Positions 3,226 to 62,875 of a stretch of DNA of 64,000 bases are shown here, in pieces (position 1 is the first letter of the stretch; every line of letters begins with the position of its first letter). A model generated the notes under the pieces. That model was given only the letters and a program-made list of their open reading frames with translations, was not told the origin of the DNA and ran no database searches. The DNA is from a virus (lineage: Duplodnaviria > Caudoviricetes): IMG/VR virus record IMGVR_UViG_3300032288_002134, positions 872-64,871 of that record. The stretch is one strand, 5' to 3'. The position numbers and the translations under genes were made by a program.

Positions 3226-3245
3226 GGTGTTAAAAATGTTTTAAA

Positions 3246-6057: not shown

Positions 6058-6104
6058 CTGCACGATAAATATTTTAACATTCTTTAATTCAATTCAATTT
6101 AATT

Positions 6105-9151: not shown

Positions 9152-9172
9152 ATTTGAATTTTAGGAATGTTA

Positions 9173-9199
9173 GGGGCTAGGGAAACCTAGTCCTTTTTT
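9173..9199 (+). terminator. intrinsic terminator before groES
   Basis: GGGCTAGG-GAAA-CCTAGTCC followed by T6. Confidence 0.75.
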
Positions 9200-9220
9200 A
9201 AATTAAATCAAATTAAATTT

Positions 9221-9884: not shown

Positions 9885-9964
9885 AAGATTAAATTTAATT
9901 AGATTTTTTTGTAAATATAATAAAGAAAAACATTTATATTTGACCTTAAAATAAATTTTGTACT

Positions 9965-33373: not shown

Positions 33374-33383
33374 AATTTAATCA

Positions 33384-34331: not shown

Positions 34332-34341
34332 AAAATAAAAC

Positions 34342-35166: not shown

Positions 35167-35182
35167 TTTATATCTTTGTTTT

Positions 35183-35587: not shown

Positions 35588-35589
35588 CT

Positions 35590-36441: not shown

Positions 36442-36466
36442 ATAGGATTGGTAATAAGTTTAAATT

Positions 36467-37816: not shown

Positions 37817-37823
37817 ATAATAT

Positions 37824-39788
37824 ATGCCAACATATTTCGGTTACGTTGAAAGAGAAGCGGATAGCTATATAAATTGGGCAGAGATAGGCAAGGGTATCTC
37901 TGACACTGTCAATGAGATAGACAAGGTAAGGAACGAGAAGAAAGCAGCACTTGACCAGGTGTCAAGAGACTTCCAAACAAAGCTCTCCGAATACCCTTCC
38001 GGTCAGGATAAGAATGCAAATAGATTTGCATATAACTATAGCGACAATGCTTCTCAGTTTATGCTTATGCAACAGAGACTTTTAAAGCAAGGTAAGCTAA
38101 AACTAAAAGACTATCTTAACAATACTCAGAACATAATGGATGACACTGAGACTGCTTTCTCTTTGGTAAAGACATATCAGGAGCAGTACGGTAAAAAGAT
38201 GGAGCAGTACCGGAATGGAGAGATATCAATAGCAGAGGTAGAGAACTTTGCTCTTATGGAAAGTTTTGGTGGCTTTACAGACACTGACTTGTATATCAAT
38301 CCACTAGATGGCTCTGTAAATCTTGCAAAGTCAAAAATAGAAAGAGTAGCTGGGAAAGAGGTAAGGACAATGGCTGAAGGTCAGGAAAATGTTATGAGTG
38401 TAGGAGTAATGAAGCAACTAATGAATACTCCTATACCAAGATATAACATGGAGAAACAAAGTACAGCCATAGCGGATGGTCTTGGAAAAGAGATACAGAT
38501 AATGATGGAAGGTGGCTTAATAACATCTTATGAGGATATAAGAAGACGTATCTCTACAAAAGGCGCACTACAATCAAATGATCCGGATGTAATTTCAGAG
38601 GCTTTGATAAATGCAGGTATAAATACAAGTGGTATATCTCTTACTGAGATTACTAAGAAAGAAGACCCAACGACAAAGGCACAAATAGAAGTAAAGACAA
38701 CAAAGACATTTGATGGTAGAGAGGATGAGTTAGCATCTGAATATGTAAGGATAAAAGGTAAACCTAAAGAACAACGTACTCAAGATGAAAGTAATTTATT
38801 TTTTCAAGTAGAGAAGTCTTTAAAAGACAGTGAAAAAATGATTGCTTCTTATGATGAAACTTTAAGAGGAATTGTACAATCTAACCTTAACACGCCATAT
38901 AATTATATGTCTGCATTGAGGGATAACAATGTAAAAAACTCACAGAATAAGCAATTGTACAATGGTTATACTTTCGATGCTAAAGAGAGAGATAAGAATC
39001 CAAATTTGATTTTGGCAAAATATGAAAATGGAACTATAACCTATGAGCTTACTCCTGAACAAAAGAAGGATGCTGAAGATGCTGTGATGGAACAAGCCGA
39101 GATGAGGCTAGATATAAAAGAGGAATACAAGGCTACCTATAAGACTCCGGAACAGATAGCTGAAGAAAATGCTATAAAGCGTCAGGAGTTAGCGATTAAA
39201 CAACAACAAGCTAATAATCGAGAGATTCCCGAATGGCAATATAAAGCAGCTAAAGAAGATAAAGAAATTGTATATGCTGCTAGGCTTATTGCAAATTTAT
39301 ATAATGGAACAGATGCTGAAGTAGAAACAGCTATTGAGCATTTTAAAGGAGACGAATCTTTGGGCATAAAAGACATAATAAGAACTGATGAAGGAATTAA
39401 AATAATATATGATTGGACCGATCCAAACAGAATACCAAAAGGAGAGGATTATTTTTCTTTTTATACATCAGGAACTGATAATCCTGTAGGTAATTTACAA
39501 TTTTACGATCGTATTTCAAAAGCATTAACACCTTCAAAGCAAAAAGATAGAGAAGGGTTTATTAATAGAGGTAGAGAGGTATTAAAACCATACGAAGGAC
39601 ATCCTAACTTAAAGGTTTTAGCAAATCCTAAAAGCCTTTGGTGGGATATGGATGGTAAAGTTGGCGAAACTCCAATTATAAAAGAAAGATTAAATAGAAG
39701 ATTAGGATTATCAGGAGCTTATGTGACTGGTTCAGCAGCAGGTACAGGGGGAACAGGTGGTGCAAGCAGATTCAATAAAAATAAATAA
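37824..39788 (+). CDS. internal virion/ejection protein
   Basis: 654-aa helical ORF in the cargo cluster. Confidence 0.6.
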   Translation: MPTYFGYVEREADSYINWAEIGKGISDTVNEIDKVRNEKKAALDQVSRDFQTKLSEYPSGQDKNANRFAYNYSDNASQFMLMQQRLLKQGKLKLKDYLNNTQNIMDDTETAFSLVKTYQEQYGKKMEQYRNGEISIAEVENFALMESFGGFTDTDLYINPLDGSVNLAKSKIERVAGKEVRTMAEGQENVMSVGVMKQLMNTPIPRYNMEKQSTAIADGLGKEIQIMMEGGLITSYEDIRRRISTKGALQSNDPDVISEALINAGINTSGISLTEITKKEDPTTKAQIEVKTTKTFDGREDELASEYVRIKGKPKEQRTQDESNLFFQVEKSLKDSEKMIASYDETLRGIVQSNLNTPYNYMSALRDNNVKNSQNKQLYNGYTFDAKERDKNPNLILAKYENGTITYELTPEQKKDAEDAVMEQAEMRLDIKEEYKATYKTPEQIAEENAIKRQELAIKQQQANNREIPEWQYKAAKEDKEIVYAARLIANLYNGTDAEVETAIEHFKGDESLGIKDIIRTDEGIKIIYDWTDPNRIPKGEDYFSFYTSGTDNPVGNLQFYDRISKALTPSKQKDREGFINRGREVLKPYEGHPNLKVLANPKSLWWDMDGKVGETPIIKERLNRRLGLSGAYVTGSAAGTGGTGGASRFNKNK

Positions 39789-39799
39789 AATATAATAAA

Positions 39800-42700
39800 A
39801 TGAACGAAGAGGCAGTAAAATACGCTTTTGATTTATTTGTAAAAGATGGATATGGTGATAATATAGATGATTTTAGAAATCTAATGAAATCAGATCCAAA
39901 AGCAATTGATTATGTTTTTAATTTATTTGTAAAAAATGGATATGGTGATAATATAAATGATTTTAAAAATCTATTAGGAATTACTCAATCCCAAGCAATC
40001 ACTCCAAAAAAAAAAGGAGAGAGTATGGTATCCGACTCGGAAGTTTCTTCTTCGGGTTTACCATCGGGTGAACAGCCTAAGCTTGAAGAGATACCTTTCT
40101 CTTTGGATTATCAGAAGCAACAGCAGCAAGTACCATTTAAGCCTTCAACTCCGGTAACTCAACCTGAGCAGAAAAGAGACGTGTCTAAACTAAAAGAATA
40201 TGATACTACTCAACAGTATGACAGATATGGTGTGCCTGTTACTCAGTTTCCTACAGCACAAAGAGAAGAGTATTTAGCTAAACCGGTACAGCAGATTGAG
40301 ACAAAAGTCAAGTTTGAAGAAAAGAAAGAGGAGCTTGAGAAACAAGTACCTGGTTTCTTAAAGCCATCTGTAGAGACAATAGACAAAAACTTTTTAGCTA
40401 GAACTTCACTTCCAATAATAAGCGATTTAAACAGACAATACAAAGAAGCAGGTTTTGAGTTTTCAGGCAATCCTGCTGATAAAACATATTTAATAGCAAA
40501 AGCTCCAAATGGACAAACATTAAATATCAATTTAGGATATTTTAATAATGCAGGATATATAAATGATATATCAGATGAAGCAGAAAGGTTAAAAGTTTTT
40601 ATCAAAGAAAATTCTCCATCTATACCGACTGAAAAAGTAAATAAATTACAAAAGGAATACGAGGAAGGTAAGCAAGAATTTCTTACACAAAAACAAATAG
40701 ATGAATCGAATAAATCTCTTTCAAAAGATTTAGAAGATTATGGCAAAAGAAATTTATCTTATACTCAGAGTTTAGATAATTTAAAAAAATCAATTGATGA
40801 ATTTAATGCAATACCTGAAAGTCAAAGAAATACTCCTGAATATATAAATAGAAGAAATGAAATTCAAAAACAAACTGATATATTGATTTCAGAGGAGAAC
40901 AGTCTTAAGCAATTTGAGAAAGATATAGAAGCTAAACAAAGTAATTTAAAAAAGTCACTAGGAGAATATACAAAGTATAAAGAAAATCAAGGTACTTTTG
41001 CAGGTGGTATTTGGAATTCAATATCAAATACAATAAGTTCAATGGTCGCAGGAACTGTTGCTGCCGGATCTGATATTATAACAGGGGCAACTCCTGCTGA
41101 ATGGTTATTAGGTAAAGAAGAATATGAAAAGCAATTCACTCAGATTGCCAAAGAAAAATATGGAATAGAAGGAGATAAATTTGATGACATAATAAGAAAT
41201 GATAAGTTAACAGAAGGAAGAGCAGCTCTTATAAATAGTGAATTAAAAGACAGAGTAAAGAAAGAACGAAAATATGGCAAAGAAGGGGAAGAAGGTGTAA
41301 TAAAATATCTAAGAGGTAGTGTGTATGATTTATTGGCAGATAAAAGCACTACTGAACAATGGGCTGAATTAAAAAATAAATCATTTATACCTCAAGCTAT
41401 ATTGGGTGTTAGTGGTAGCCTTCCAAATATGTTGATGCCTGGGGGTTGGATAGGTCGTGCTTTAGGTACTTTTATATCTACTTCTGATGGTGTATTTAAA
41501 GAAATGGAAAATAGTCCTAATTTCCAAAATATATCTGAAAATGAAAAATGGGCTGTTGCTGCTCCTTTAGGAATGGCTTCTGCTACATTAGAAGAGATAG
41601 GTTTATCTTCATTGTTAAAAGGAACTAATATAACAAAATATATAACAAAGATGGCATTAGACAAAGCAGGTGCTAATGTTACTCCAAATATATTTAAAGG
41701 ATTAGTAAAAAAAGAAGTTCAGGATTTAATATCTAATGGTACTCTAAAAGTAGTAAATGGTTTTTTAGCTGAAGCAGAAACAGGTGCTTTGCAAACAATA
41801 GCGGAATTTTCAATAAAGGATATATACAATACGGTAAAAGATAAAAAAGACGAAAACGGAAACCCTGTAAAGATGTTTGATACGCCTGATACTGTAACTG
41901 AATGGGTTACTGATGTATTGTATGGAGGTGCTGTTGAAGGTGTTGGAGGTCTTATGATTTCATCTGGTATGGCTGCTGCAAGTGCTTTTAATAATGACAA
42001 TTTTGTCAATATGGATAGCGATACTTTCAAGGCATTTGTTAATTCTTCAAATGATTTGAATGTAGAAAAAGCATTTATATCTGATTTGAAAAATAAGATT
42101 GCATCTGGAGATATGACAATGGCTGAAGGCAAGGATTTATTAAATAAATATAGACAAGCCAAAGGACTATTAAATTCATTGCCTAGCGAATTGGATGAAA
42201 AAGATAAAAGAGTAGCTTTAGATTTATTGAGTAAAAGAAAAAAGTTAGAGGATAAGATCCAAGGAAAAGATACAGCATTAGCTAAACCTATTCAGAATAG
42301 AATTGATCAAATTAACGAACAACTAAATCAAATAACAGAGAATGCCATTCAAAAGCAAACAGCAGGTGAAGTACCTGTACAGCCAGAAGCCGGAGTTGGC
42401 GAAGAAGTGGTCCAAGGAAAACCCGAAACAGGACTTGAAGTCACTTCCGAACAAGTTGTCACCGAAGAAAAGCCAAAAGAAGAGGTAGTAACACCTGAAG
42501 GTGTAGTAGAAAAAAAAGATATACAAGTTTACAGAGGTACATCTACTGGAAATAAATCTGATAAAGACGGAGTATCTTACCATACAACAGATAGAGGGTA
42601 TGCAGCGTTTTATGAAACAGGAAAAGAAAAGCCTGATAATAAAGCTTTAGAAGAACTTGAAGCCTTAACTCCTCCGAATAAACCAAATAAAGTAGAATTA

Positions 42701-45700
42701 TCAACTGAAGAGGAAGTAGATGCTTATGTTGATCAATGGATTTCTGACTATGAAGACGCAAAAAGATTCAAACCTGAGACTAAAATACCTTCAAGAGAAG
42801 AAGCTATATCAGAAATGAAACAGAGCGGTTATCCAATATTTCTTACTCAAGAAGAGGTTGATAACGAAAACAAAAAACAAGAGAAAAAATATAATTCTGA
42901 TTTAGAGAAATACAATCAAAAGAAATTAGAACTTGAAGATAAGGCTAAAAATTATTTATCACCCAAAAAAATATCTGGCAATTTCTTTAATCTTGGGATT
43001 GATTTTTCAAAAATGAATCCTCAACAGATATTTGAAAAATTGAAATCATTAGGAATATCAAGTGTGTTTAAAGGCGGTAATTTTTTAGACAATTATCATT
43101 CTGACTTAACAGAATATGCAAGAAAAAATAACATAGATTTCTATGATGGCATAACCGGTGGTGTTCAAGGTAGTATGAATACTGCTCCTCAAGAGATAAT
43201 TGAAGTTTCTAAATTAGAACAAGCACCTGCTGAGGTAAAGACTCCTGAGCAGGAAGCTGACCTATTGGAGGAATTACTGACCGGAAAGAAGAAAGAGCCG
43301 GCAATGACACCTCAAGTGGAAACAATGACACCTGGGGAAAAAGTAATGACACCTGAAGCGAAAGCGGAAGAAGAGATGATAGTTCAGCCTGAGTTTACCG
43401 AGCAGGATCAGGCAAGGAAGAGAGAGCTTGAAGATGCTCTGAAGAAGGCTGACAAGCGTAAGAAGAATGTTATGGTAGGTGAGGTGTCAATGCCAAAGGC
43501 TGAGGTTAAAGCAGAGCTTGATGCATTGAGACAGAAGGAGCAGGCTGTTGTTGAGGCAGAAGTTCAATCTATAGAAAAAATGTTATCAGCTCCTGAGCAA
43601 AAAGACAAAGGAAAGATAAGACAAGCTGTAACAAATGCAGTTAAGGCTATTGCTAAAATATTACCGAATACAAAGATAGTATTACACGAAACTAGTCAAG
43701 ATTATGTAAACGCTACCGGTGATACTGACAATGCATCAGGATTATATGTACCAAGCGCAGATGGAGGTACTATTCATATAAACTTATCTAATGCCAATAC
43801 AAGAACAGTAGGGCATGAGGTATTTCATGCTACATTACTCAGAGGTATTAAGACAGATGCTGAAGCTCAGAGATTAGCGAAAGCAATGATAGGAGCTGTA
43901 GCTAAGTCATTAAAACAATCAGGCGCAAATCAAGAGTTATTAAATGAACTTGAAAATTTCTTGTCTAACTATGATGAGAATATTCAAAATGAGGAATACT
44001 TAGCTGAAGTATTTGGATATCTCGCTGATGGATACCCACAGTTGACAGCACCTGAAAAAAGTATTATCAATAGATTCATTGAGAGAATAATGAAACTGTT
44101 TGGCTTAAAGCCAATGACAGACAAAGAGGTTATTGATTTTATGAATACCCTATCAAGGAAGGTAGCTACCGGTGAAGAGATAACAGAGAAAGAAGCAGGT
44201 ATTACAAAAAGAACTAAAGGAATATCTAATATAACAAAAAGATTTCAAGCAAATTTTATAGATCCTATTTCAAGACTTTCATTTGTTTATGATAAAAATA
44301 GTGAAAAATTTGAAAATTTAAAAAAGCAAGGATTTATAACTACAGATAAATCATTATCTGATTTTAATGGGAAATTTATATTCCTACATCAACCTGATGC
44401 AGCTTTTTCAGGTATGATTTATAAAAATAATGAACTTCTTGTTGAGGGAAAAGGAGGTGTTTTTTATCCTATTAAATTCCATGAAGATGGATATTTTTGG
44501 GCAAGTACATCAAAAACTGCCAAAAAAATGGCAGACGATTTAAATAAAGTATTAAAACAAAACAATGGAATTATTTATATGGCATTAACCTCTGCGCCAT
44601 ATGATAAACTAATGTCAAGCACAACAATGTCAAATGCAATACTTGATTTTTTCTCATCAAAAGCATTTGATAAAAATTTTAATATAACTCAAAAACAATT
44701 AAAAAATGCACTAATATTAGCTGCAAATAATGTAAAAGAAAAACAAAAAAAAGATAAAAAAACGGGAGAAATTACTACTAAAACTATAGGGTTAAATTTA
44801 AATATAAAACAAAATATTTCTTTAGAAAACATTCAAACTTTAATTAAAGAAAAATTAAATCCTGATAATAGTTCATTTGCAGATAGAAAGAATTTTGCTG
44901 AAGAGTTAATAAGAATAATGGCTGAGAATATTAAAGAAGATTCTAAGGCTATTGAACAATTTGGTAAATTATTCTCTGAAGGAATTCAAAATAAATATTT
45001 TAAAGGAATAACAAAAACAGGTAAATTAAGCATTAGTGCTGCAAATATGACTCAAGCACTATCTGAAATGTTTACTGAACCAATTTTAAAAGAAGGAATT
45101 GATAGAGAAAAAGGAGGTCAAGTATATGCTATATTAGAATTGAATGGTAAAGTTAAACCTGTTGAATCTAATAAACACGAATCATATCCTATGGCTATAC
45201 AGTCAGAAGGAAGTGAAAAAGTAAAAGTTCATGTTCTGAATGATAGACAGAATTGGTATGATGTATTTGAAGATTTTGAAACAAATGACATAGTAACTGA
45301 AGATAGAAAAAATAAAATATATCCTACTTCAGGAGTTTCGACAAGAGGATTAAAATTAAATACATCAAAAGTTGATGGCATATCACCTCGTCAGCAGAAA
45401 TCTACTGAAATAACAACAGATAAAGATGCTAAACCTGGCTTTGAAAAAGCTCTTAATTCGCTTAATGAAACTGAACAACAAAGAGAAGAATGGAGAAAAA
45501 CGCATAAAGTAAATCAAAAACAAAAACGTAATCCCATAGTAGAACAAGCTGTAAAAGATTATTATAATGAAAAAATAACTCAAGAAGAATATCTTGATAT
45601 AGTTTCTAAAAACCAACCTATTAAATCTTTTAAAAATGTTCCAAAATTACCAACTTTAAGAGAAATAACAAATTCTTTAGACAGCTCTAAAGTTGCCACA

Positions 45701-48700
45701 GGTATAATTGGATTAACTAAAAATTTAGAAGATGGAGAAAAAGTAGCTTGCAGATTAGATATACCTGCATATGAAGATTTTGATACTTGGGTTGTTTCTA
45801 TACATGATGGAAATAAAGAAGGAAAATCAATTGCATACGGTCAGACAGCTGTACTAAAAAATGTTGATTTTAAAACATTTCCTGGACCTGCAATGAAAAT
45901 TGCAATGGGTACTCAAAGTAAATCTACAATTGCTAGAATGTTTGGTAATTGGGTTAATGAAGATCCAGAATCAGTTCATGCAAGAGCAAAAGAACTAATG
46001 AATGACCCTGCTTGGACACAAGTAGGAATGAATCCATTTAGATATAGTTGGTTTTATGATAAGGCAGATGGAACGCCTATTTCTACAGCTGATGAAGTTA
46101 TTCAAGTGGGTGCATTAGTATTGGCTAAAAATGCAAAAAAAGTATCTACTAAAGATATAATGTTTGAAACTAAATCATCAACAGGATTATCAATAAGGTT
46201 TCAAAAAAATAATTCACAAGAAATTGTAAAACAAGCAAGAGCTAATGGTATATCAGATGCAGGCATAAGAGCCTATTTTAAAAAGAATGGTTTGTCTGAT
46301 ATTGAAATTGATGAATTACTTGAAGGAGAAAAAGGAGCAGGCAAAAAAATTGAGCTTTCTGAAGAGACTCTTCCTGGATACACCAAACTGATGAACAGAA
46401 TAAATGGTCTCATCTCAAGGGGTAGAAAAAGCGGAAAGTCTGATGATGTAATAATGCAAGGTGTTATTGCCAATGTAGAAGCAAACTCACCGGAATATGC
46501 CAATGCTACCGATCAACAGCGTGAGCAGATAATTCGTGACATCAGAAAGATGTTCGGAAAGAAAGAAAAGGCAGCACCATCAGCAGAGAAAATAACCGGT
46601 AAACCTAAATCTAAAAAGGTTACTGTAAATGAAATGGCTGCACTCAAAGACCAAATAAGATTAGAGGCAAGAGCTGCTAGAGAAGCTAAGGGTGATCTTA
46701 ATGCTAAACGTAAAATGTTAGCTGAGGCTATCAATAAACTCGTTGCTAAAGGTACTATTACCTTAAGACAAGCTAACGCTATTATCAAAAGGGTGAACCT
46801 GGTCAACCTTGACAATCCTATAATGGTTGAGAGATTACTTAATTATGCAGAAAAAGTATTTAAAGATGCTGAATATGCGGATAAATTAAGCGAAGCAAAT
46901 AAATTATTTTCATCTATAAAGCAATCGTCAAAGTCAAAAGAAAAGAATGCTGATTTAGTAACTCTTGCAAAAGAATTTTTAGGAATAGACCCATCTATGG
47001 TTGAGAATATAGATGAGTATATTCAAAAGGCTTCTGAGTTAGATAGTAGTTTAAAAGGTTCTAAGGCTACGGCAAAAGGTATGTCTGCTTCTGAAATGAT
47101 AAACATACAAGAAGCTACTGAATACATATCTGAAACAATAAAAGCTCAGGAGCAAAAGATAAAAGAACAGACTGCTGCTGAGATAGAGTCTACAATGGGT
47201 GTAGATGCATCTGATTTGACTTATGAACAAATGCTTGAGTTACTTGAAGATGAAAGTAAACCTATCAATAAAGATAAAGAAAAGGTTATCAGGAGTTTAG
47301 TTAATAAAATGTTTGATACATATTCAAGTATTATCGAATATATGTTTAAGACTGGTAAAAATCCTTTTGTTGTTTATGATGAGAATCTAAAATACGAACC
47401 GGTAACATTTAAAGAATCGGATAAGCAGATTGTTCGTGAATTTATGAAAATGGATCTCGGTAAGCTCAGTGTCAGAGAGGCATTGAAAGCTATGGATGCA
47501 TTAAATAACTTTATTGTCAATCGTTCAGTTGCCAATATGGGTTCTGTAGTAGCCCAATATAAAGCAAAACAAAACGCTGAAATAGTTGACAAAAAAAATA
47601 TAAGAAGCAAACCTGTAAAGTATTTATGGAGTAATACTTTGGGTAAAATGCTATTTGACAATTTTGCTTCATTCCCATTATTGATAGAAAGATTCTTTAA
47701 AAGTAAAGACATTGGTTTGTATGTATCCAGAATGATGGGTTTAAATGATTTGTTTAATGGTGCTTCTTCTGCAAAAACGATAACCGGTGTTGTAGTTAAA
47801 AACTATCTTGACCTATTCTCAAAAACAAAACCAAATGGTAAAGTATTTAATGATGCTTTTAACTTGGTAGAAAGGGGAATGGTTGCATTCATGTCAAGAC
47901 ACAAGATAGGAACGGATGCTCAGATAAAAGAAGAATTTAATGACAGAAAAAATGAAATTGAAGAGTCTATAAAAGCATTGTCTACAGGTACTAAAAGAGA
48001 ACAGGAAAAAGCTAAGGTTTATAAAGAAGTATATGACAAGTTGTTTAAAGATGCAAAGAACGCAGATGACATCAGAAATAATGCGGATAATAAAAATATA
48101 GAAGCTGTAGATTGGTGGGTTAACGAATGGAAAAATCATTATGATGAGTTAGCTGATGTATCATTAAAAATATACAATACAAAACTGGATAAGGATTCTT
48201 ATTACACCACCGATAGATATTCTAAATTGGAAGGGGTAGAAAAAGAAATAGATCTTGAGGATAATGTTTCAGCATTTAGCTTTAACAATGGAAATATATC
48301 TGAAAAGAAAGCAGGATCTTTAATGGAGACAAGAGATAAGAAATCGGGTCTTCCAAAAAATAAAGATGGAGAAGTCACAAGGTTTGTTGATTTATCTTTT
48401 GATGCCGTAAATGCAAATTCATTATACGATGCACTGACAGACATTAAAACTGCCTATGCTATTAAACAAGTAAAAGCATTTATGAAAACAGATGCTTTCA
48501 AAAGAATTGTACCTGATAAAGAAGAAAGAGATATATTAGGAAATAGAATAAACTTAGCTGTTAGAAATTTAAGAAATCAAAAATTATTTGATTCAAGTAC
48601 AATGAGTAAAGCTGTAAAGGGATTAAATAAATTTTCAAGCATTGGGTCTACAATGGCATTAGCCGGTATAGTGCAACCTTTTAAACAAACTATTCCTATA

Positions 48701-50125
48701 GCATTTAATACTGCTATAAATACAGGTAGATTTTTTGATTTATTACGGATACTAACAAATTCAGATGTAAAAGATTTTATTAACAATTCAGGATATTCAA
48801 TAGCAAATAGAGGTATAGAATCAAGTGTTCACCTTGAAAGTATAAATAAAAAATTAGATGAGGCTGCAAAGACAAAAGCTGAATATTTAGGTAATAAAAT
48901 ATTAGAATTGAATGAGATGTATATGAAACTTTTCTTGGCGAATCCTGATGCTTGGATAGCTAGAGCATCTTGGATGGCTTATTATGAAAAAGGGTTAAGA
49001 AAACAAGGTCTATACAAAACAACTGAAACAATAAAAACAGCTTCAGGAACTCGTGAGGTTACTAAAAAAGGAATTGATTATAGTAAGCATAAAATAAACA
49101 AAGAAGCTGCTGATTATGCTCAGATGATGATTGACAGACAGCAAAACATAACCGATACTAGATTGGCAGGTTCTATATATTCAGGTGAAAATGCCTTCCA
49201 AACTATGATGACAAAAATATTTTTGCCACTCGCCAGTTTTAGAATAAATCAACATTTGAGAATGTCTAATGACTTAGCAACTACATTTAGTAAAACTACA
49301 AGTTGGCAAGAAAAAAGAGAAGCATTAACATCTCTTTCAGGTGCAATAGTAGAAATGATTGTATTTAGAGCCATAGGAATAGGTGCTAGTTATTTATTTT
49401 TTGAATTAGCATCAATGATAAGAGGAGAAGAAGAAGATGAGGAGAAAAAGAAAAGAAAAGAAAAAATGGCTTCAAATACATTAAAAGGTATATTAACTGG
49501 AGCTGTAACAGATATATTATCTCCTATTCCTGTTACAGATTATCCGGTAAAGTATTCTGTTAATGCTGCAATGGATTTCACTCAGGATTTGATTGGAATG
49601 GGTGATGAAGATAAACTATCTTTATATGTTGAAAATATTCCTTCATTTTCAAGTGTATTAGGGACTGCCGGTATCTTTTTAGATAAAGTAGCAGATATAA
49701 AAGAAACAGCTCAAATGGCTGCTACAGGTAAGTTTGAACAAGATGTATTTGGTAAAAAAATTGAGAAAGAGATAAGCGAAAAGGACAGACAAATATTAGC
49801 ATGGTCTTTAATCCCATCAATACTCACAAATACTATATTACCTGGTGCGCCAGAGACAAATAATATTATGAGTAAAGTTAAAAAAGCTATTAAGAAAGAA
49901 GGTAAAACTGCCGATCAAAAAGAAAAATATGATGCATTTGGTGGGCATTCTTCTGAAAAAGAATTTAGAACGGAAAATCCTGAAAAGTACATGGAATCTT
50001 TGCAGCCAGGTGGTAGTTTATATGAATACAAAATGAGAGAAAATCAGAAAAAAATGGAAGAACTTCCAGAGAAATTACAAAAAAAGATGGAGGAGACTAT
50101 GAAAAAAGCAAATAAAATGCAGTAA
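39800..50125 (+). CDS. giant polyvalent virion protein (3441 aa) with zincin HExxH and possible ADP-ribosyltransferase-like segment
   Basis: TVGHEVFH...EEYLAE; VYRGT...SYHTTDRGYAAFY. Confidence 0.75.
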   Translation: MNEEAVKYAFDLFVKDGYGDNIDDFRNLMKSDPKAIDYVFNLFVKNGYGDNINDFKNLLGITQSQAITPKKKGESMVSDSEVSSSGLPSGEQPKLEEIPFSLDYQKQQQQVPFKPSTPVTQPEQKRDVSKLKEYDTTQQYDRYGVPVTQFPTAQREEYLAKPVQQIETKVKFEEKKEELEKQVPGFLKPSVETIDKNFLARTSLPIISDLNRQYKEAGFEFSGNPADKTYLIAKAPNGQTLNINLGYFNNAGYINDISDEAERLKVFIKENSPSIPTEKVNKLQKEYEEGKQEFLTQKQIDESNKSLSKDLEDYGKRNLSYTQSLDNLKKSIDEFNAIPESQRNTPEYINRRNEIQKQTDILISEENSLKQFEKDIEAKQSNLKKSLGEYTKYKENQGTFAGGIWNSISNTISSMVAGTVAAGSDIITGATPAEWLLGKEEYEKQFTQIAKEKYGIEGDKFDDIIRNDKLTEGRAALINSELKDRVKKERKYGKEGEEGVIKYLRGSVYDLLADKSTTEQWAELKNKSFIPQAILGVSGSLPNMLMPGGWIGRALGTFISTSDGVFKEMENSPNFQNISENEKWAVAAPLGMASATLEEIGLSSLLKGTNITKYITKMALDKAGANVTPNIFKGLVKKEVQDLISNGTLKVVNGFLAEAETGALQTIAEFSIKDIYNTVKDKKDENGNPVKMFDTPDTVTEWVTDVLYGGAVEGVGGLMISSGMAAASAFNNDNFVNMDSDTFKAFVNSSNDLNVEKAFISDLKNKIASGDMTMAEGKDLLNKYRQAKGLLNSLPSELDEKDKRVALDLLSKRKKLEDKIQGKDTALAKPIQNRIDQINEQLNQITENAIQKQTAGEVPVQPEAGVGEEVVQGKPETGLEVTSEQVVTEEKPKEEVVTPEGVVEKKDIQVYRGTSTGNKSDKDGVSYHTTDRGYAAFYETGKEKPDNKALEELEALTPPNKPNKVELSTEEEVDAYVDQWISDYEDAKRFKPETKIPSREEAISEMKQSGYPIFLTQEEVDNENKKQEKKYNSDLEKYNQKKLELEDKAKNYLSPKKISGNFFNLGIDFSKMNPQQIFEKLKSLGISSVFKGGNFLDNYHSDLTEYARKNNIDFYDGITGGVQGSMNTAPQEIIEVSKLEQAPAEVKTPEQEADLLEELLTGKKKEPAMTPQVETMTPGEKVMTPEAKAEEEMIVQPEFTEQDQARKRELEDALKKADKRKKNVMVGEVSMPKAEVKAELDALRQKEQAVVEAEVQSIEKMLSAPEQKDKGKIRQAVTNAVKAIAKILPNTKIVLHETSQDYVNATGDTDNASGLYVPSADGGTIHINLSNANTRTVGHEVFHATLLRGIKTDAEAQRLAKAMIGAVAKSLKQSGANQELLNELENFLSNYDENIQNEEYLAEVFGYLADGYPQLTAPEKSIINRFIERIMKLFGLKPMTDKEVIDFMNTLSRKVATGEEITEKEAGITKRTKGISNITKRFQANFIDPISRLSFVYDKNSEKFENLKKQGFITTDKSLSDFNGKFIFLHQPDAAFSGMIYKNNELLVEGKGGVFYPIKFHEDGYFWASTSKTAKKMADDLNKVLKQNNGIIYMALTSAPYDKLMSSTTMSNAILDFFSSKAFDKNFNITQKQLKNALILAANNVKEKQKKDKKTGEITTKTIGLNLNIKQNISLENIQTLIKEKLNPDNSSFADRKNFAEELIRIMAENIKEDSKAIEQFGKLFSEGIQNKYFKGITKTGKLSISAANMTQALSEMFTEPILKEGIDREKGGQVYAILELNGKVKPVESNKHESYPMAIQSEGSEKVKVHVLNDRQNWYDVFEDFETNDIVTEDRKNKIYPTSGVSTRGLKLNTSKVDGISPRQQKSTEITTDKDAKPGFEKALNSLNETEQQREEWRKTHKVNQKQKRNPIVEQAVKDYYNEKITQEEYLDIVSKNQPIKSFKNVPKLPTLREITNSLDSSKVATGIIGLTKNLEDGEKVACRLDIPAYEDFDTWVVSIHDGNKEGKSIAYGQTAVLKNVDFKTFPGPAMKIAMGTQSKSTIARMFGNWVNEDPESVHARAKELMNDPAWTQVGMNPFRYSWFYDKADGTPISTADEVIQVGALVLAKNAKKVSTKDIMFETKSSTGLSIRFQKNNSQEIVKQARANGISDAGIRAYFKKNGLSDIEIDELLEGEKGAGKKIELSEETLPGYTKLMNRINGLISRGRKSGKSDDVIMQGVIANVEANSPEYANATDQQREQIIRDIRKMFGKKEKAAPSAEKITGKPKSKKVTVNEMAALKDQIRLEARAAREAKGDLNAKRKMLAEAINKLVAKGTITLRQANAIIKRVNLVNLDNPIMVERLLNYAEKVFKDAEYADKLSEANKLFSSIKQSSKSKEKNADLVTLAKEFLGIDPSMVENIDEYIQKASELDSSLKGSKATAKGMSASEMINIQEATEYISETIKAQEQKIKEQTAAEIESTMGVDASDLTYEQMLELLEDESKPINKDKEKVIRSLVNKMFDTYSSIIEYMFKTGKNPFVVYDENLKYEPVTFKESDKQIVREFMKMDLGKLSVREALKAMDALNNFIVNRSVANMGSVVAQYKAKQNAEIVDKKNIRSKPVKYLWSNTLGKMLFDNFASFPLLIERFFKSKDIGLYVSRMMGLNDLFNGASSAKTITGVVVKNYLDLFSKTKPNGKVFNDAFNLVERGMVAFMSRHKIGTDAQIKEEFNDRKNEIEESIKALSTGTKREQEKAKVYKEVYDKLFKDAKNADDIRNNADNKNIEAVDWWVNEWKNHYDELADVSLKIYNTKLDKDSYYTTDRYSKLEGVEKEIDLEDNVSAFSFNNGNISEKKAGSLMETRDKKSGLPKNKDGEVTRFVDLSFDAVNANSLYDALTDIKTAYAIKQVKAFMKTDAFKRIVPDKEERDILGNRINLAVRNLRNQKLFDSSTMSKAVKGLNKFSSIGSTMALAGIVQPFKQTIPIAFNTAINTGRFFDLLRILTNSDVKDFINNSGYSIANRGIESSVHLESINKKLDEAAKTKAEYLGNKILELNEMYMKLFLANPDAWIARASWMAYYEKGLRKQGLYKTTETIKTASGTREVTKKGIDYSKHKINKEAADYAQMMIDRQQNITDTRLAGSIYSGENAFQTMMTKIFLPLASFRINQHLRMSNDLATTFSKTTSWQEKREALTSLSGAIVEMIVFRAIGIGASYLFFELASMIRGEEEDEEKKKRKEKMASNTLKGILTGAVTDILSPIPVTDYPVKYSVNAAMDFTQDLIGMGDEDKLSLYVENIPSFSSVLGTAGIFLDKVADIKETAQMAATGKFEQDVFGKKIEKEISEKDRQILAWSLIPSILTNTILPGAPETNNIMSKVKKAIKKEGKTADQKEKYDAFGGHSSEKEFRTENPEKYMESLQPGGSLYEYKMRENQKKMEELPEKLQKKMEETMKKANKMQ
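42342..42488 (+). CDS. overprinted 48-aa basic protein (MPFKSKQQVKYLYSQKPELAKKW...) in the +1 frame of the giant gene
   Basis: ATG after AACTAAATCAAATAACAGAGA leader; TAG at 42486-42488. Confidence 0.6.
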   Translation: MPFKSKQQVKYLYSQKPELAKKWSKENPKQDLKSLPNKLSPKKSQKKR

Positions 50126-50848: not shown

Positions 50849-50908
50849 TTGAATTTGATTTTATTTAATTAAAAAATATATGCGCCACGTTATGAGGCTT
50901 AGCGATTA

Positions 50909-51661
50909 GTTAGCACCAATACTACCATCCTGCACATTTGAGAATATGTAGTCCTAATTTTGGCTCAACACAATTATTTAATAAGGTTCTTTTATCCCCT
51001 TTGTAATTGTGCCAATCTTTTATTTCATACCCTTTTGCATCCATTTTTATTTTTAGCGTTATACCTTTATTGTTGCCAGTATCATTAGTTTTTATTTCTA
51101 TTTTAGGTATTTCAAAGTTTGTCCAAAATGAATGTCTGCCAATATATTGCGGAGTTATAAGTGGTTCGTACCAACTTTTTACATTTTCTACTACAAATTT
51201 TATTTCTTTTCCTTTTGTATATTGTTGCAAAAACAATATTTCTTCATACAATTTCATATCAGGAAATAATGCTTTACCCTTACCATTGCAATATGCTTTA
51301 AATCTCATTCTGCTATGTGTTGGACAAGGCGGTGAACACCATATAAAATCATAATTCATAAAATTATCTTGTAAATATTGATGAGCATCGGCAACAATCA
51401 CCTTATCGTTTGGATAAAAGTCTTGATATATTTTAGCAATACTCTCATTATATTCAACTGCGGTTACTTCTACATTTTCCCAAAGTTTGCGATTACCTCC
51501 TATGCCACAATACAGATTAAGAACCCGTACTGGTGCTAACAGCACATTGCCAAAAGTGGGGGTTTCCGTTTTCAAATCAAGTTTATCTTTCATATTAAAT
51601 TTAGTTTTTCAATTAAAGTTTAGTGGTACAATGCCCCACCTTCGGCAATCTGCAAAACGTT
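50909..51661 (+). mobile_element. integron-like gene cassette 1 (attC-like site 51527-51661) carrying a reversed methyltransferase gene
   Basis: GTTAGCACCAATAC start complements GTACTGGTGCTAAC; inner arms TTGCCAAAAGTGGGG/CCCCACCTTCGGCAA; ends at GTT. Confidence 0.65.
50922..51593 (-). CDS. C5 cytosine DNA methyltransferase
   Basis: LYCGIGG (motif I), SPPC (IV), ENV (VI). Confidence 0.85.
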   Translation of the reverse strand: MKDKLDLKTETPTFGNVLLAPVRVLNLYCGIGGNRKLWENVEVTAVEYNESIAKIYQDFYPNDKVIVADAHQYLQDNFMNYDFIWCSPPCPTHSRMRFKAYCNGKGKALFPDMKLYEEILFLQQYTKGKEIKFVVENVKSWYEPLITPQYIGRHSFWTNFEIPKIEIKTNDTGNNKGITLKIKMDAKGYEIKDWHNYKGDKRTLLNNCVEPKLGLHILKCAGW

Positions 51662-51899
51662 ATCCTTTAAATATTTCTACTTTTATTCCTTTGTCTGTCA
51701 GCTCTTTATGTCTGTACTCTTGTAGTTTTGTCGCTTTACCTCCAGGTGTCTTCACCTCTATGAATAGAACATCAGAGTTCGGTGGTATGGCGATAAGATC
51801 TGGTATGCCATTCTTGTTTGTCTTAGTCAGCTTGATGACGTAGTATCCTTGAGCCTCCAATTCTTTAATCTTCTTGGTCTGTATCTGTTGCTCCGTCAT
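51660..51899 (-). CDS. VRR-NUC nuclease
   Basis: EQQIQ...GIPDL...FIEVK...LQ. Confidence 0.85.
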   Translation of the reverse strand: MTEQQIQTKKIKELEAQGYYVIKLTKTNKNGIPDLIAIPPNSDVLFIEVKTPGGKATKLQEYRHKELTDKGIKVEIFKG

Positions 51900-56348: not shown

Positions 56349-56531
56349 GTCGTTTTATTATTTTTTATGTCGAAAAAATGTCAGTTTAATGTCAATATAT
56401 TTATTATAACTTATTGATTTTCTTTTCTTATGTCGAAAATGTCGAAAATAGAAATGAAATGAAATTCATAGAATTTTATAAATAGTAAAAAATATATAGA
56501 GAGTATATAGGAAAAAAATTCGGTTTTTCGG
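56347..56531. repeat. iteron-like element, copy 2 (putative origin), directly upstream of the primase-helicase
   Basis: ATGTC at 56347, 56367, 56378, 56389, 56430, 56439; shared 19-mer and 26-mer. Confidence 0.65.
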
Positions 56532-57798: not shown

Positions 57799-57846
57799 AT
57801 CGTTTTGTTGATGTTACCATTTCGTTGATGTCAACGCTACGGTTGT

Positions 57847-58086
57847 TTATAAATCTTTGTTTAGTTCGTTGTACACTTCAAACCACCAATCAAAGGTAGA
57901 GTTAAGTTCGGTGTTGAATGGATTTGAATGTGGATTACCGGATAAGACAGTTCTAACTGTTAACCTTGCTGCTTTAATTGCAATCAAAGTGCATAGAATC
58001 TCATTTCCGCAATCGGTATCTTCATCCTGGAGCAGGTTTTTAAACTCTGCTATTAGTTGTTCTGCTTTTTCTTTCGGATTAATCAT
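57847..58086 (-). CDS. hypothetical protein (MINPKEKAEQL...)
   Basis: Start trimmed to the ATG overlapping the upstream stop. Confidence 0.65.
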   Translation of the reverse strand: MINPKEKAEQLIAEFKNLLQDEDTDCGNEILCTLIAIKAARLTVRTVLSGNPHSNPFNTELNSTFDWWFEVYNELNKDL

Positions 58087-58288
58087 AATATTTTTTAAAA
58101 GTTGTGTTATAATAATCTTCGTATGATTTATATTTTTCCCAAAAATCATCTTGCCTAGCAATTCTTGTAGCATCTATTATCTGCTCTTTCTCCATTTTTA
58201 TGACTTTTTCTATTAGCCATGGAGGTAACTGGAATTTAAGTGAAGACCATTCTTCAATTAACCATTCTACTGCTGTTAGTTTTTCCAT
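58079..58288 (-). CDS. hypothetical protein (TAVEWL type)
   Basis: TAVEWL...MEKEQIIDA...YYNTTF. Confidence 0.7.
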   Translation of the reverse strand: MEKLTAVEWLIEEWSSLKFQLPPWLIEKVIKMEKEQIIDATRIARQDDFWEKYKSYEDYYNTTFKKYYD

Positions 58289-58338
58289 GTTATTTGTTTT
58301 AAGTTATCAGGGGGACATTGATGTCCCTCTGTGAAAAA

Positions 58339-58422
58339 TAGTCAGGACAGGATTCGAACCTGCATCCCCATACTATTGGGTAAACGGATTTGCACCGTAT
58401 GTTAACTTTACACTACCTGACT
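58339..58422 (-). tRNA. atypical tRNA or tRNA-like RNA, possibly Leu(CAA)
   Basis: AGTCAGG/CCTGACT acceptor, GCAGG-TTCGAAT-CCTGT T-arm, ACGG-TGCAAAT-CCGT arm, long variable arm; no CCA, non-canonical D-loop. Confidence 0.5.
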
Positions 58423-58495
58423 TTACCGTTCCTGCCTACTTTATGTACATACGGTAAAAGATGCATCCTCATAACCTTCGGGCAGGTAAGTTATT

Positions 58496-58547
58496 AGTTA
58501 GGACATAATTTGAACATCTATTGCCCATGCCATTCCGCCACCTGACA
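58496..58547 (-). pseudogene. degenerate copy of the tRNA-like element
   Basis: TGTCAGG-TGGCGGAATGG...GTTCAAAT..TGTCCTAACT; central arms missing. Confidence 0.4.
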
Positions 58548-58584
58548 TAAAAAATATCCGCCATAACGTGAGGTTTAGCGATTA

Positions 58585-58878
58585 GTTAGCGGTAATGCGC
58601 CTAACCATGTATAGGTTTATTACAAGTTGCGCAAATATACTTACCATTCATTTCATAACATTGTGAAGTAGTACAGGCGCACATACCGCTAACAAGCGGT
58701 TGGCGCAATGCTACTTCACGGTACTTTGACAATGCTTGGCAAAAAGCCCAGTGTTCTCTTTGAAGGTCTTTGTCCTCTAAACAAACCTCAATCTTGTTTT
58801 CAAGCCATTTTATATATTCTTCCATTCTATTGATATTTAGTTGTTAATAATACGCACTTCGCCAACCGCCCATCCGTT
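58585..58878 (+). mobile_element. integron-like gene cassette 2 (attC-like site 58677-58878)
   Basis: GTTAGCGGTAATGCGC start complements GCGCACATACCGCTAAC; arms GCGGTTGGCG/CGCCAACCGC; ends at GTT. Confidence 0.65.
58601..58825 (-). CDS. small zinc-ribbon protein in cassette 2
   Basis: CAC...C...CATC at the C-terminus. Confidence 0.6.
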   Translation of the reverse strand: MEEYIKWLENKIEVCLEDKDLQREHWAFCQALSKYREVALRQPLVSGMCACTTSQCYEMNGKYICATCNKPIHG

Positions 58879-58978
58879 ATAAAAAAAGGCTGATGTCGTA
58901 ATTACAGATGCTATCCATAAATACAGCGAATTAAAGAAACATCATTTTCGCCACACCTTTTATCCTATTATGGTACGG

Positions 58979-59410
58979 TTAAATATCTTTCGCCACCTTC
59001 ACTATGTGCTGCCAGTACATACAAGATTCACCGTATCCTCTGAGCTTCGCCCATTCTTCATATGGCTTGTAACATACTGATTTATAGTGGTAGTACAAGA
59101 ACTTTGCATGGTCTATATATCCCTCTATGACCGTACTGTATTTCCTCCATTCCACTCCGGCTCTATCAGTAAAGCATTCGCCTCTGAATGCCTCCGGAAA
59201 GTATCTGATACCAAAATGATTGTTACTATGTGCTGAGATATATGACTTACCACCACCGGATTCGACCAATGCCTGCGCTAATTGTATGGAGGTCGGTACT
59301 CCATACACATACTCACAAACCTTTGCTATTGGGTAGTATTTGATAGTGTACTCTTCCTGACTTTTTGGTGTAAGGAAAAGCACCAAAGCGATTTTATAAA
59401 ATATTGTCAT
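58979..59410 (-). CDS. GH73 glucosaminidase/FlgJ-like hydrolase (divergent)
   Basis: SIQLAQALVESGGG...NNHFGIR; hydrophobic N-terminus. Confidence 0.75.
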   Translation of the reverse strand: MTIFYKIALVLFLTPKSQEEYTIKYYPIAKVCEYVYGVPTSIQLAQALVESGGGKSYISAHSNNHFGIRYFPEAFRGECFTDRAGVEWRKYSTVIEGYIDHAKFLYYHYKSVCYKPYEEWAKLRGYGESCMYWQHIVKVAKDI

Positions 59411-60048
59411 AGTTCAAATAAACTTTTTTGATTTGAGATTTTGCTATTGTGAATACCTCTTGCGGTATTATAGATAGTCAATCCCACCTCATAGTCAACT
59501 AAATTTCTTGCAATCTTATCTATCCTTTGTTCTCCTTTGTATTTCTTGAAGTCAACACCATGAAATTCACAGAGTCTATTCACCTCATCTTTCCCTTCGA
59601 TGATACCACTCTCTCTTTCACCTAAGTTACTTGGCAGGTTAAAGTTAGTCCAATAAAGATGTCTTCCTCTTTTCTTTGCCGGTATCAATGGGTCATAGTA
59701 TGGTATCACATTCTCAACAACCCATTTACCATTAAACCAATTGTCTAAGAATATAACTTCTTGGTATAGTGTCATGTCCGGATATTCCGGAGTAGTAGTA
59801 TCTTTTCTTGCAAACCTTGATCTGGAATGGGTAGGGCATGGAGGACTGCTCCAAATGAAATCAAAATCCTTATAGTTTTCAAGCAGGTATTGATGTGCAT
59901 CACCCATCACCACCCTATCGTCAGGAAATCTTTCTTGATACATCTTTACTAACTCAGGGTCTATCTCTACGGCAGTCACCTCGCAGTCTGTCCAAAGTAA
60001 TCTGTTGCCACCCAAACAAGCATAAAGGTTTAAAACTTTATAACTCAT
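59407..60048 (-). CDS. C5 cytosine DNA methyltransferase
   Basis: LYACLGG, SPPCPTHS, ENV; start trimmed to MSYKVLN. Confidence 0.85.
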   Translation of the reverse strand: MSYKVLNLYACLGGNRLLWTDCEVTAVEIDPELVKMYQERFPDDRVVMGDAHQYLLENYKDFDFIWSSPPCPTHSRSRFARKDTTTPEYPDMTLYQEVIFLDNWFNGKWVVENVIPYYDPLIPAKKRGRHLYWTNFNLPSNLGERESGIIEGKDEVNRLCEFHGVDFKKYKGEQRIDKIARNLVDYEVGLTIYNTARGIHNSKISNQKSLFEL

Positions 60049-60052
60049 AGTG

Positions 60053-60352
60053 TTAAGGATTATATTTGTCAGATAAAGCATTTACCATAGCTGAGTGACA
60101 ATCTTCTGCGTTAGCATAATAGCAATTACCCAACCTGCTGTCAATCACCATCTCATTCCCTTCCTCTATGTGAAAGCACCATCTCCCATCGGGTATGTTT
60201 ATCAACTCAATGGTCAACAACCTTTCAAGAAATCTTGCCTTTACATAGTACGCTGTATTACCATCAAGTCCTTCATGGTATTTGTAGTATTTAAAAGCCT
60301 TCACATTCAATGGAGTCTTAGACACATTTTTTGGCTTATAGAACTTCAGCAT
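60053..60352 (-). CDS. hypothetical protein
   Basis: 99-aa ORF. Confidence 0.65.
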   Translation of the reverse strand: MLKFYKPKNVSKTPLNVKAFKYYKYHEGLDGNTAYYVKARFLERLLTIELINIPDGRWCFHIEEGNEMVIDSRLGNCYYANAEDCHSAMVNALSDKYNP

Positions 60353-62323: not shown

Positions 62324-62875
62324 TTAGTTATCGAATCTGTTTAGTTTATATCTCTCTATGACTGAGATAAGAATCTTATCATAGCTTTTGTTGGTGGCAT
62401 AGCCACACTTCTTCAGACCTCTTGCCCATCCTTTGTAGTCATCGCACCGGAGCTTGAACAAGTGGTTGTATCTCTCATTCATCAGTAGCTTTGAATGGTC
62501 TCTGAACGAATACCATGCAGTCTTATACACCACAAACTTATCTTTAGGACTATCGTCATGGTAGATGGCATACTTTTCTTTTCTGCCTTTCCTCCATTTC
62601 ATACCAAAATGATTGTTACATTTGACCGACAGCGAACTTGTACCGGAATTTGACTCTACTATACCCTGCGCCAGGGTTATGCTTGCAGGGATACCATACA
62701 GACTCTGCTCTGTCAGTGCAGTCTTTAGGTACTTGTCCACATAGGCTTGAACCTTATCCACTTTCTTGAGTGTAGACTTCTGTTTGTTGTATGACTCAGT
62801 TGCAATGGGGTATTTTCTACCCCTTGCAAAACTGAAACAAACCAATAGACATATAACAAAAAATATTATTCTCAT
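62324..62875 (-). CDS. GH73 glucosaminidase/FlgJ-like hydrolase with signal peptide
   Basis: IPASITLAQGIVES, NNHFGMK, GYATNKSY. Confidence 0.88.
   Translation of the reverse strand: MRIIFFVICLLVCFSFARGRKYPIATESYNKQKSTLKKVDKVQAYVDKYLKTALTEQSLYGIPASITLAQGIVESNSGTSSLSVKCNNHFGMKWRKGRKEKYAIYHDDSPKDKFVVYKTAWYSFRDHSKLLMNERYNHLFKLRCDDYKGWARGLKKCGYATNKSYDKILISVIERYKLNRFDN

Follow-up and report, generated by a model that had tools for sequence, protein, structure and literature searches.

Cassette-like modules beside a repeated, candidate attI-like sequence in an integrase-less phage of a probable flavobacterial host

The viral record IMGVR_UViG_3300032288_002134 (Duplodnaviria; Caudoviricetes) has 64,871 bp, carries direct terminal repeats and is rated complete, and the window studied here is the stretch of 64,000 nucleotides (nt) that runs from base 872 to base 64871 of that record. 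The structural genes of this phage lie on the plus strand, in a block closed by an open reading frame (ORF) of 3441 amino acids (aa), and the replication and accessory genes form a second block on the minus strand, from 64000 down to 50131. The terminase is closest to that of an uncultured podovirus (78%) and next to those of Flavobacterium and Cellulophaga phages, and the host is therefore probably a member of Flavobacteriia. Two units laid out like integron cassettes are found in the accessory block, 7.7 kb apart, each preceded by a copy of the same 21-nt motif, GAGGYTTAGCGATTAGTTAGC, which is considered here as a candidate attI-like landing site (Table 1). That the motif occurs twice, both times with a cassette-like unit, is confirmed.

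Table 1. Coordinates of the cassettes, their recombination-site candidates and cargo genes, and the motif flank in the window (R1 is the covariance model described in the text).
Feature	Position	Strand	Basis
Cassette 2, 291 nt	58586-58876	+	G|TT at both ends; repeats and model match; public contigs of two runs break at 58877/58879
Cassette 1, 750 nt	50910-51659	+	Bounded by G|TT; 92% nucleotide homology to locus L023 stops at 50908
attC-like site of cassette 2, 204 nt	58682-58885	-	R1 41.8 bits, E 1.6e-7; repeats; fold
attC-like site of cassette 1	51529-51668	-	R1 132 bits, sequence in training set; 20-bp stem with 2 G.T pairs
Cassette-proximal arm (distal R' part belonging to cassette 2)	58585-58600	+	Complementary to R'' 58677-58693
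74-aa ORF, reversed relative to the integron top strand	58601-58825	-	ORF list; 179 homologues
C5-cytosine-methyltransferase-like ORF, 223 aa, cargo of cassette 1	50922-51593	-	PF00145 E 1.5e-8; PHROG DNA methyltransferase; flanked by arms 50909-50922/51527-51540
Motif copy 1	50894-50914	+	Putative crossover G|TT at 50909|50910; motif search with shuffles
Motif copy 2, candidate attI-like flank	58570-58590	+	Putative crossover G|TT at 58585|58586; exact match; core precedes different cassettes in other phages
Extended conserved flank	58546-58590	+	Ungapped against 50870-50914, 35/45 identical

The sequence-only reading of this DNA had placed a reversed cassette between G|TT boundaries at 58585 and 58876 (the bar marks the crossover), had described its inverted arms and the 74-aa ORF, and had pointed to a second cassette that follows the same motif and ends in GTTAT. 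All of these coordinates and features check against the sequence, and the second unit (cassette 1) has the same layout as the first (cassette 2). On the plus strand, both cassettes are immediately preceded by ...TTAGCGATTA-G and close in GTTAT (51659-51663 and 58876-58880). The attC-like site of cassette 2 reads, in plus-strand order, R'' 58684-58693, L'' 58696-58711, a loop, L' 58854-58869 and R' GTTAT 58876-58880, with arms 58696-58711/58854-58869 that are 88% complementary over 16 nt. The start of each cassette is complementary to its own R'', as expected of integron cassettes: in cassette 2 the arms 58585-58594/58684-58693 pair at 10/10 positions, extension to 58600/58677 gives 15/17 by eye with a single mismatch and a single gap, and in cassette 1 the arms 50909-50922/51527-51540 are 93% complementary over 14 nt. 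The order R''-L''...L'-R' with AAC/GTT cores and a G|TT crossover, which characterizes attC sites, takes the form of TAAC...GTTA ends with 17-27-bp stems; the attC consensus is RYYYAAC, and the bases beside TAAC/GTT fit the published consensus loosely. Besides, a scan of the window for long TAAC...GTTA hairpins gave two and no more on the minus strand (58879-58693 and 51662-51540), both in units that end at a motif copy with the hairpin just upstream, and one on the plus strand, and 20 shuffles gave 13 with both strands summed. Short arms by themselves are common (52 inverted pairs of at least 12 nt in 14 kb), and the arms described here are judged not to be a product of chance because of the covariation, the model match at 58682-58885, a site outside the training set, and the significant fold.

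The module recurs in other phage and metagenome loci with a general plan that, on the coding strand, reads ...TAAC, G, a 17-27-bp stem with a 60-190-nt loop, T plus GTTA, about 6-10 variable bases and the cargo; the unit then ends with the reverse complement of the ~6-10 variable bases and closes in TAAC. In the phage modules the loop contains an AT-rich stretch, an ATG and the first codons of a gene. Arm sequences vary between loci yet stay complementary, the pairing seen between 58585-58600 and 58677-58693 recurs, in other sequences, in loci L158, L159, L161, L163, L165 and L167, and the methyltransferase unit shares the same plan. The 17-27-bp stems of 27 distinct modules from phage and metagenome loci contain 467 Watson-Crick, 63 G.T, 4 A.C and 20 other pairs, and the excess of G.T over A.C indicates that the structure is selected on one strand. 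In an alignment of 19 modules, 95.0% of the cells are paired, compared with 71.2% in shuffles (0/500 as high) and 41-47% in slid controls; 15 of the 20 stem pairs change on both sides, and one G.U pair is invariant. Moreover, a covariance model of the module (R1) recovers the site of cassette 2, which lies outside its training set, and nothing else in the window scores above 17 bits except the training site in cassette 1 and its 34-bit echo on the opposite strand. The segment 58580-58885 forms two long-range helices on either strand, with z scores of -3.8 (minus strand) and -4.5 (plus strand) and 0/100 shuffles as good.

In the 74-aa ORF of cassette 2, the C-terminal 25 codons fall within the first loop, and the second loop contains the leader and the first 38 codons; residues 1-47 are encoded by the attC-like loop and the 3' arm, and the Cys-rich C-terminus belongs to the cargo part. 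Across the family, residues 1-47 are near-invariant and the C-termini are unrelated in sequence and length, with the break at the codons that hold the inverted arm 58684-58693. This pattern is explained by an N-terminus encoded in the recombination site and a C-terminus encoded in the cargo, and the same arrangement would account for the many small phage proteins that combine an invariant N-terminus with unrelated C-termini. A diversity-generating retroelement or an invertible segment was considered as the source of the variable C-termini and rejected, as the C-termini differ in length and are unrelated and no invertase was found. The family has no match in Pfam or PHROG. Its C-termini often contain CxxC, and in two metagenome loci (L176 and L177) a gene of the family lies between tRNA genes with a common acceptor and T-arm sequence.

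Arrays of the same module were found in other phages. Among 100 phage and metagenome loci there were 43 matches at E <0.001, which form arrays of 4-7 and, with one exception (42 of 43), follow the gene strand, and contig L203 has ten modules in a row. The cultured Flavobacterium phage vB_FspS_hemulen6-1 carries 15 sites, all on the gene strand, in a stretch (2696-9941) that holds four annotated DNA methyltransferase genes, and Polaribacter phage P12002L has 10 weaker R1 matches, 9 of which are on the gene strand at 30000-40955, in its methyltransferase region. A blastn search with 58682-58885 gave no match among named phages, the named-phage collection has no near-identical phage, and the closest named relative (MW202828.1) is without the motif.

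The motif itself shows no further copies in the window at up to 3 mismatches, and its chance expectation is 0 (0 matches in 100 shuffles); the whole record likewise has 2 copies. Within the collinear extended flanks, 9 nt (58555-58563) are the reverse complement of 50879-50887, and this inversion converts a GTTA core into a TAAC core. Read on the coding (minus) strand, the motif is GCTAACTAATCGCTAA..., and stop codons in all six frames restrict it to intergenic positions. It lies 7-13 nt past the stop codons of the 223-aa and 74-aa ORFs. The flank has TAA in all three coding-strand frames, so any gene reading out of a cassette is terminated there, and it contains direct TTAG repeats. A terminator or structured RNA was rejected as an explanation of the motif, which alone gave no significant fold (z -0.84 and -1.47). 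A scan for sigma-70-type promoters and terminators showed no enrichment (44 promoter-like sites against 45.5 expected and 12 terminator-like sites against 8.1), a result to be read with the proviso that consensus scans do not model Bacteroidetes promoters. A tie between the motif and the methyltransferase gene as such was also dropped, the 16-mer of the motif (up to 2 mismatches) being present in 0 of the best 80 of 541 loci of relatives.

No other contig of IMG/VR carries the exact 21-mer, and the 16-mer occurs once apiece in six contigs; the wider search was made with TAACTAATCGCTAA, a 14-mer that puts no constraint on the cassette end. Among 80 instances in viral contigs, a same-strand module within 1.5 kb was found upstream in 18 and downstream in 2, with 0 on the other strand, and in 16 of these 18 upstream modules the GTTA-arm is complementary by eye to the bases before the motif, in 14 different sequences. 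The exact 9-nt partner of the cassette end was found upstream in 20/78 cases, downstream in 1/78 and in 27/1584 controls. In other phage contigs, the core TAATCGCTAA (coding strand) comes immediately after cassette ends with at least 14 different sequences, and in every case it is on that side of the array where attI would be predicted. The upstream bias of modules and partners therefore places the motif at the array end, on the side expected of attI, beside many different cassettes, and the check proposed in the sequence-only reading, whether variable cassettes adjoin the motif elsewhere, is positive.

Three sets of relatives are informative about the occupation of this site. In contig L272, a glucosaminidase gene is followed by 31 nt, by the motif with its extended flank and then by a homologue of the gene 58079-58288, and no module was found within 6 kb of the motif with filters off (E <=1); this arrangement looks like an unoccupied landing site. 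Contig L262 is a closer relative, with flanking genes that reach 87% protein identity to those of the window; here the motif adjoins a different cassette, and the 74-aa family is represented in the second one. Additionally, public contigs over 57800-59500 join 58493/58494 to 58877/58879 in two runs from different studies, and others diverge from the window at 58597, 58685 and 58865-58870, which are the cargo and R' boundaries; these contigs are metagenomic, 88% alike, and derive from relatives rather than from the same phage. The comparison suggests that the motif flank is an attI-like site or a preferred secondary site, and integron integrases can use secondary sites.

It is most improbable that the two motif copies have no role in capture and are remnants of an internal duplication, each downstream of a methyltransferase paralogue, or a prophage attachment site (attP). 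Regional duplication is apparent from two short C5-methyltransferase-like paralogues (50922-51593 and 59407-60081, 42% identity), only one of which is inside a cassette, and from two glucosaminidase genes (58979-59410 and 62324-62875) in the same 14-kb block, and a relative, the 73-kb complete viral record L017 with one motif copy, has a 432-aa phage-type integrase (1501-2799) 1 kb from it. However, the motif copies are 20/21 identical, compared with 42% for the paralogous proteins, and are therefore conserved or recently copied; the motif recurs in unrelated contexts beside different cassettes, and the genome combines direct terminal repeats with the absence of an integrase. The integrase of L017 has the domains Arm-DNA-bind_5, SAM_5 and PF00589 and is unlike an integron integrase. 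When one genome per species was scanned, 52 matches to the 16-mer came up; they are scattered, many of them being 11-nt tandem arrays in metagenome-assembled genomes (MAGs) of Paludibacteraceae, 0/52 were seen at a prophage junction, and they do not converge on one conserved site of the host, a tRNA gene for example. An attP that matches a host tRNA gene or another single host site was accordingly rejected, and nothing in the data points to the attachment site of the sequence-only reading if that is understood as a prophage attP. The 16-mer corresponds to 1.45 units of the 11-nt repeat, tandem arrays of which occur at many loci (L106-L157) in MAGs of Paludibacteraceae and other Bacteroidales, and a similar sequence lies downstream of such arrays in Bacteroidales MAGs.

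The same structural model also matches bacterial chromosomes. R1 has four matches in one Bacteroidetes MAG, with solitary copies in intergenic DNA, and 108 of the 121 sampled genomes of the order of this MAG have matches, some of them at least 27 per genome. In five regions from three genomes (93 kb in total), 53 matches were found at E <=0.01, spaced by 0.2-2.5 kb where none was missed; 49 lie on one strand per region, and the remaining 4 are weak opposite-strand matches at or beside same-strand ones. The ten bases from the GTT of a module are complementary to the ten that end in the AAC of the next module in 32 of 43 neighbours, compared with 67 of 1806 mismatched combinations, and the failures are mostly at large gaps with a probably missed module. 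In the one bacterial array that was mapped, long ORFs (at least 115 aa) lie on the strand opposite the modules. In two of the three genomes examined, a tyrosine recombinase (PF13495 plus PF00589) is found at a distance of 2-5 kb from the final module, and no recombinase is present on the array contig of the third (G058 contig 7). The top families of these recombinases are 'site-specific tyrosine recombinase/integron integrase' (190-215 bits) and the TIGR02249 integron integrase (187-197 bits), and both recombinases are at the array end that, in module orientation, matches the motif side of the phage. A palindromic site between cargos, complementarity specific to each cassette, cargo on the strand opposite the better-folding (bottom) one and a recombinase at the end make up the pattern of integron cassette arrays.

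The chromosomal arrays of 14-27 modules are at G030 contig 2 (0-64 kb), G041 (1.53-1.56 Mb) and G058 contig 7, and their cargo, judged by eye from N-termini, includes small lipoproteins, glyoxalase-like and DUF1801-like proteins. A single-strand promoter of conjugative elements was dropped as an explanation of the module, since the array logic and the adjacency of recombinases fit integrons better. The bacterial data also bear on another notion, in which a transposase moves the modules as miniature inverted-repeat transposable elements, or as cargo between terminal inverted repeats, and the motif is a preferred target or an element end. The inverted repeats at the module ends, the solitary copies in intergenic DNA of the MAG and the at least 27 copies per genome would fit such elements. 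Nonetheless, we hold this to be very unlikely: no target-site duplication was seen at the junctions examined, the asymmetry between G.T and A.C pairs (63 against 4) misfits double-strand recognition of terminal repeats, and ordered same-strand arrays with complementary ends for each cassette are an integron pattern.

Integrons have seldom been reported from this part of the bacterial tree. Néron et al. 2022 (PMC9024848) give a single complete integron in Bacteroidetes and describe integrons as very rare in the clade, and Bacteroidetes are unmentioned in the searched text of Cury et al. 2016 (PMC4889954). The bacterial arrays described here resemble sedentary chromosomal integrons in their one-strand sites every 0.2-2.5 kb, in the complementary ends of each cassette, in the cargo on the other strand of the mapped array and in the tyrosine recombinase at the end equivalent to the motif. 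They differ in that the recombinases are under the cut-offs for integron integrases and in that one array has its recombinase co-directional with the cargo; in the other genome the two are divergent.

For phages, Qi et al. 2023 (PMC9892861) covered 10,705 genomes and report 17 integrase-less attC clusters (CALIN elements), one of them in Polaribacter phage P12002L with its methyltransferase cassettes, and recombination of 5 of 6 tested phage attC sites with attI1 by IntI1; clusters of this kind in virulent phages are thus already published. The same authors set a distance limit of 3 kb for CALIN elements and quote the attC crossover as G|TTRRRY. P12002L and the present phage are alike as integrase-less phages of Flavobacteriaceae hosts (probable in the present case) in which attC-type palindromes flank orphan DNA methyltransferase genes. 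In contrast to the CALIN phages, the sites described here are solitary and 140-204 nt long, both adjoin the same 21-nt flank, and the reversed genes have their start within the attC-like loop. A CALIN element has at least two attC sites within 3 kb, and the two sites of this phage are 7.1 kb apart with no third one in the window, each cassette being solitary; a complete integron has intI beside the array, and the full record has no integrase gene. Regarding insertion at attI or at secondary sites, the likeness lies in a conserved flank that ends at G|TT, in varied cassettes beyond it and in an empty version in a relative, and the difference in a flank that has no integrase in cis, contains direct TTAG repeats and stops in six frames, and is known here from its sequence.

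We consider it probable that these units are integron-type cassettes at a conserved attI-like site in an integrase-less flavobacterial podophage, presumably moved by an enzyme of the host. The plus strand of the window would correspond to the integron top strand, and a cassette would enter after the flank ...TTAGCGATTA-G at G|TT. Insertion at the flank would proceed from a folded single strand, predicted to be the minus strand of the window with its better pairing, and would be catalysed in trans during infection by a host tyrosine recombinase of the Xer/IntI kind. In the phage copies the gene of each cassette begins within the attC-like loop, which holds its AT-rich start region, its ATG and its first codons, and each phage cassette would therefore be a self-contained expression unit. 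The other cassette, with its reversed orphan cytosine-methyltransferase-like gene, sits at the second copy of the flank, and its cargo might benefit the phage by methylation against restriction. Compared with the bacterial cassettes, the genes of the phage cassettes are reversed, are co-oriented with the neighbouring phage genes and start inside their own attC-like loop.

Several observations weigh against this interpretation. The whole 64,871-bp record contains neither a tyrosine recombinase (PF00589, for which the control matched 14/14 genomes) nor a serine recombinase (PF00239), and no invertase, so the cognate tyrosine recombinase that the sequence-only reading had hoped to identify is not encoded by the phage. 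The recombinases beside the bacterial arrays score under the curated cut-offs (187-197 against 265 for TIGR02249 and 190-215 against 220 for NF040815) and may therefore not be IntI, and the core of the motif is missing from both recombinase-adjacent bacterial regions examined, which implies that the phage flank is not the attI of the hosts. A nearby module is lacking in 62 of the 80 instances of the 14-mer, and these instances may be chance occurrences; the 16-mer also forms 11-nt tandem arrays and scattered matches in unrelated genomes. The sites are 120-200 nt long, with 17-27-bp stems and large coding loops, and most described attC sites are smaller. The invariance of TAAC and GTT has no weight, as these module ends were required in the scan and their constancy therefore reflects selection of the data. 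Additionally, the two strands of cassette 2 fold about equally (-43.9 against -40.0 kcal/mol), and the well-paired strand of the phage modules is the mRNA strand. Finally, the methyltransferase cargo is 92% identical to that of L023, in which the attC-like site differs and the homology begins only 18 nt ahead of the cargo. A strict cassette model would have site and cargo pass on as one, which is therefore not always the case, and recombination also takes place between them; the Sak annealing protein and the PDDEXK nuclease that the phage encodes could be its cause. The attI-like role proposed in the sequence-only reading thus retains the varied cassettes on the predicted side and the empty-looking L272 in its favour, and is weakened by the phage having no recombinase and by the motif missing from the two recombinase-adjacent bacterial regions.

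Some of these same observations would be expected if the hairpins were structured mRNA or regulatory junction modules that display a start codon in a loop and perhaps contain processing sites, mosaicism arose by homologous recombination between these conserved sequences and the motif was a gene-end or regulatory sequence. A precedent is the PeSL, a regulatory cassette of promoter and stem-loop for which Arbiol et al. 2010 (PMC2839356) document shuffling in T4-type phages. The likeness is that small accessory genes are bordered by conserved modules in intergenic DNA, which coincide with the breakpoints of mosaicism in a phage of lytic appearance. The G.T-rich, better-paired strand in phages (63 G.T against 4 A.C) is the coding strand, the AT-rich region, the ATG and the leader codons are located in the loop, the phage has an annealing protein and a nuclease, and similar cargo is joined to different sites in the window and in L023. 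An added RNA role of the phage hairpins may exist. As a full account, however, the regulatory alternative appears unlikely to us. In the mapped bacterial array the element is antisense to the long cargo genes, and the well-paired strand is thus not their mRNA; the arrays of 14-27 sites, the end complementarity in 32/43 neighbours and the adjoining Xer/IntI-like recombinases are left without explanation; and the motif has no significant fold, nor are promoter-like or terminator-like sites in excess in the consensus scans, which do not model Bacteroidetes promoters. A PeSL consists of a sigma-70-like promoter and a local terminator hairpin and recombines by homology, whereas the stems described here span 60-190 nt, covary, are antisense to the cargo in the mapped bacterial array and follow the cassette logic of integrons.

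Going beyond the favoured explanation of integron-type cassettes, we put forward tentatively, with the chances somewhat against it, that the modules belong to a missed, order-wide family of Bacteroidetes integrons, with attC sites of 120-200 nt, an invariant G.T pair and a sub-threshold Xer/IntI-like recombinase. This family would be common to the bacteria and their phages; the latter, lytic and without an integrase, would keep dedicated attI-like landing sequences with stops in all frames and would be loaded by the host recombinase with self-expressing reversed cassettes, such as methyltransferases and small zinc-ribbon proteins. In a limited search of the open-access literature, neither integron-like arrays of Flavobacteriia nor a conserved landing motif of phages came up. 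Within the limits of this search, the use of a conserved attI-like flank twice in an integrase-less phage, the reversed self-starting cassettes, the large form of attC in which one G.T pair is invariant and the abundance of this form in an order of Bacteroidetes are apparently new. Integron components in phages were reported recently, in a handful of genomes, and one structural model now links the two cassettes of this phage, the arrays of a cultured Flavobacterium phage and 108 of 121 genomes of a Bacteroidetes order. Phages without an integrase of their own may acquire gene cassettes from their hosts at fixed positions. Provided that the sites are active, the phages and hosts of this clade would draw on a common cassette pool that includes anti-restriction methyltransferases, and the phage would need a landing sequence only and no integrase.

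Other features of the window deserve mention. A type II tRNA-like gene (58339-58422, minus strand; Rfam tRNA 42.7 bits), missed by ARAGORN, has an anticodon loop that by eye is Leu-CAA. It sits in a segment of ~215 nt (58334-58548) that the relatives L013, L262 and L272 lack. One public contig passes over it here and has it on the other side of the motif; the segment therefore behaves like a movable unit. The scan of the window with Rfam 15 found tRNA only. No match to PF00940 (single-subunit RNA polymerase) was found in the phage, and the control likewise gave none; the 3441-aa protein (39800-50125, plus strand) has no polymerase domain and almost no family match. A gene for a GroEL-type chaperonin is present at 6105-7739 (plus strand). 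Clustered short direct repeats of GACAT and TGTCAATAA-like words occupy two long intergenic gaps (5688-5956 and 56349-56465); these repeats resemble iterons and may point to origins of replication or to places where regulators bind.

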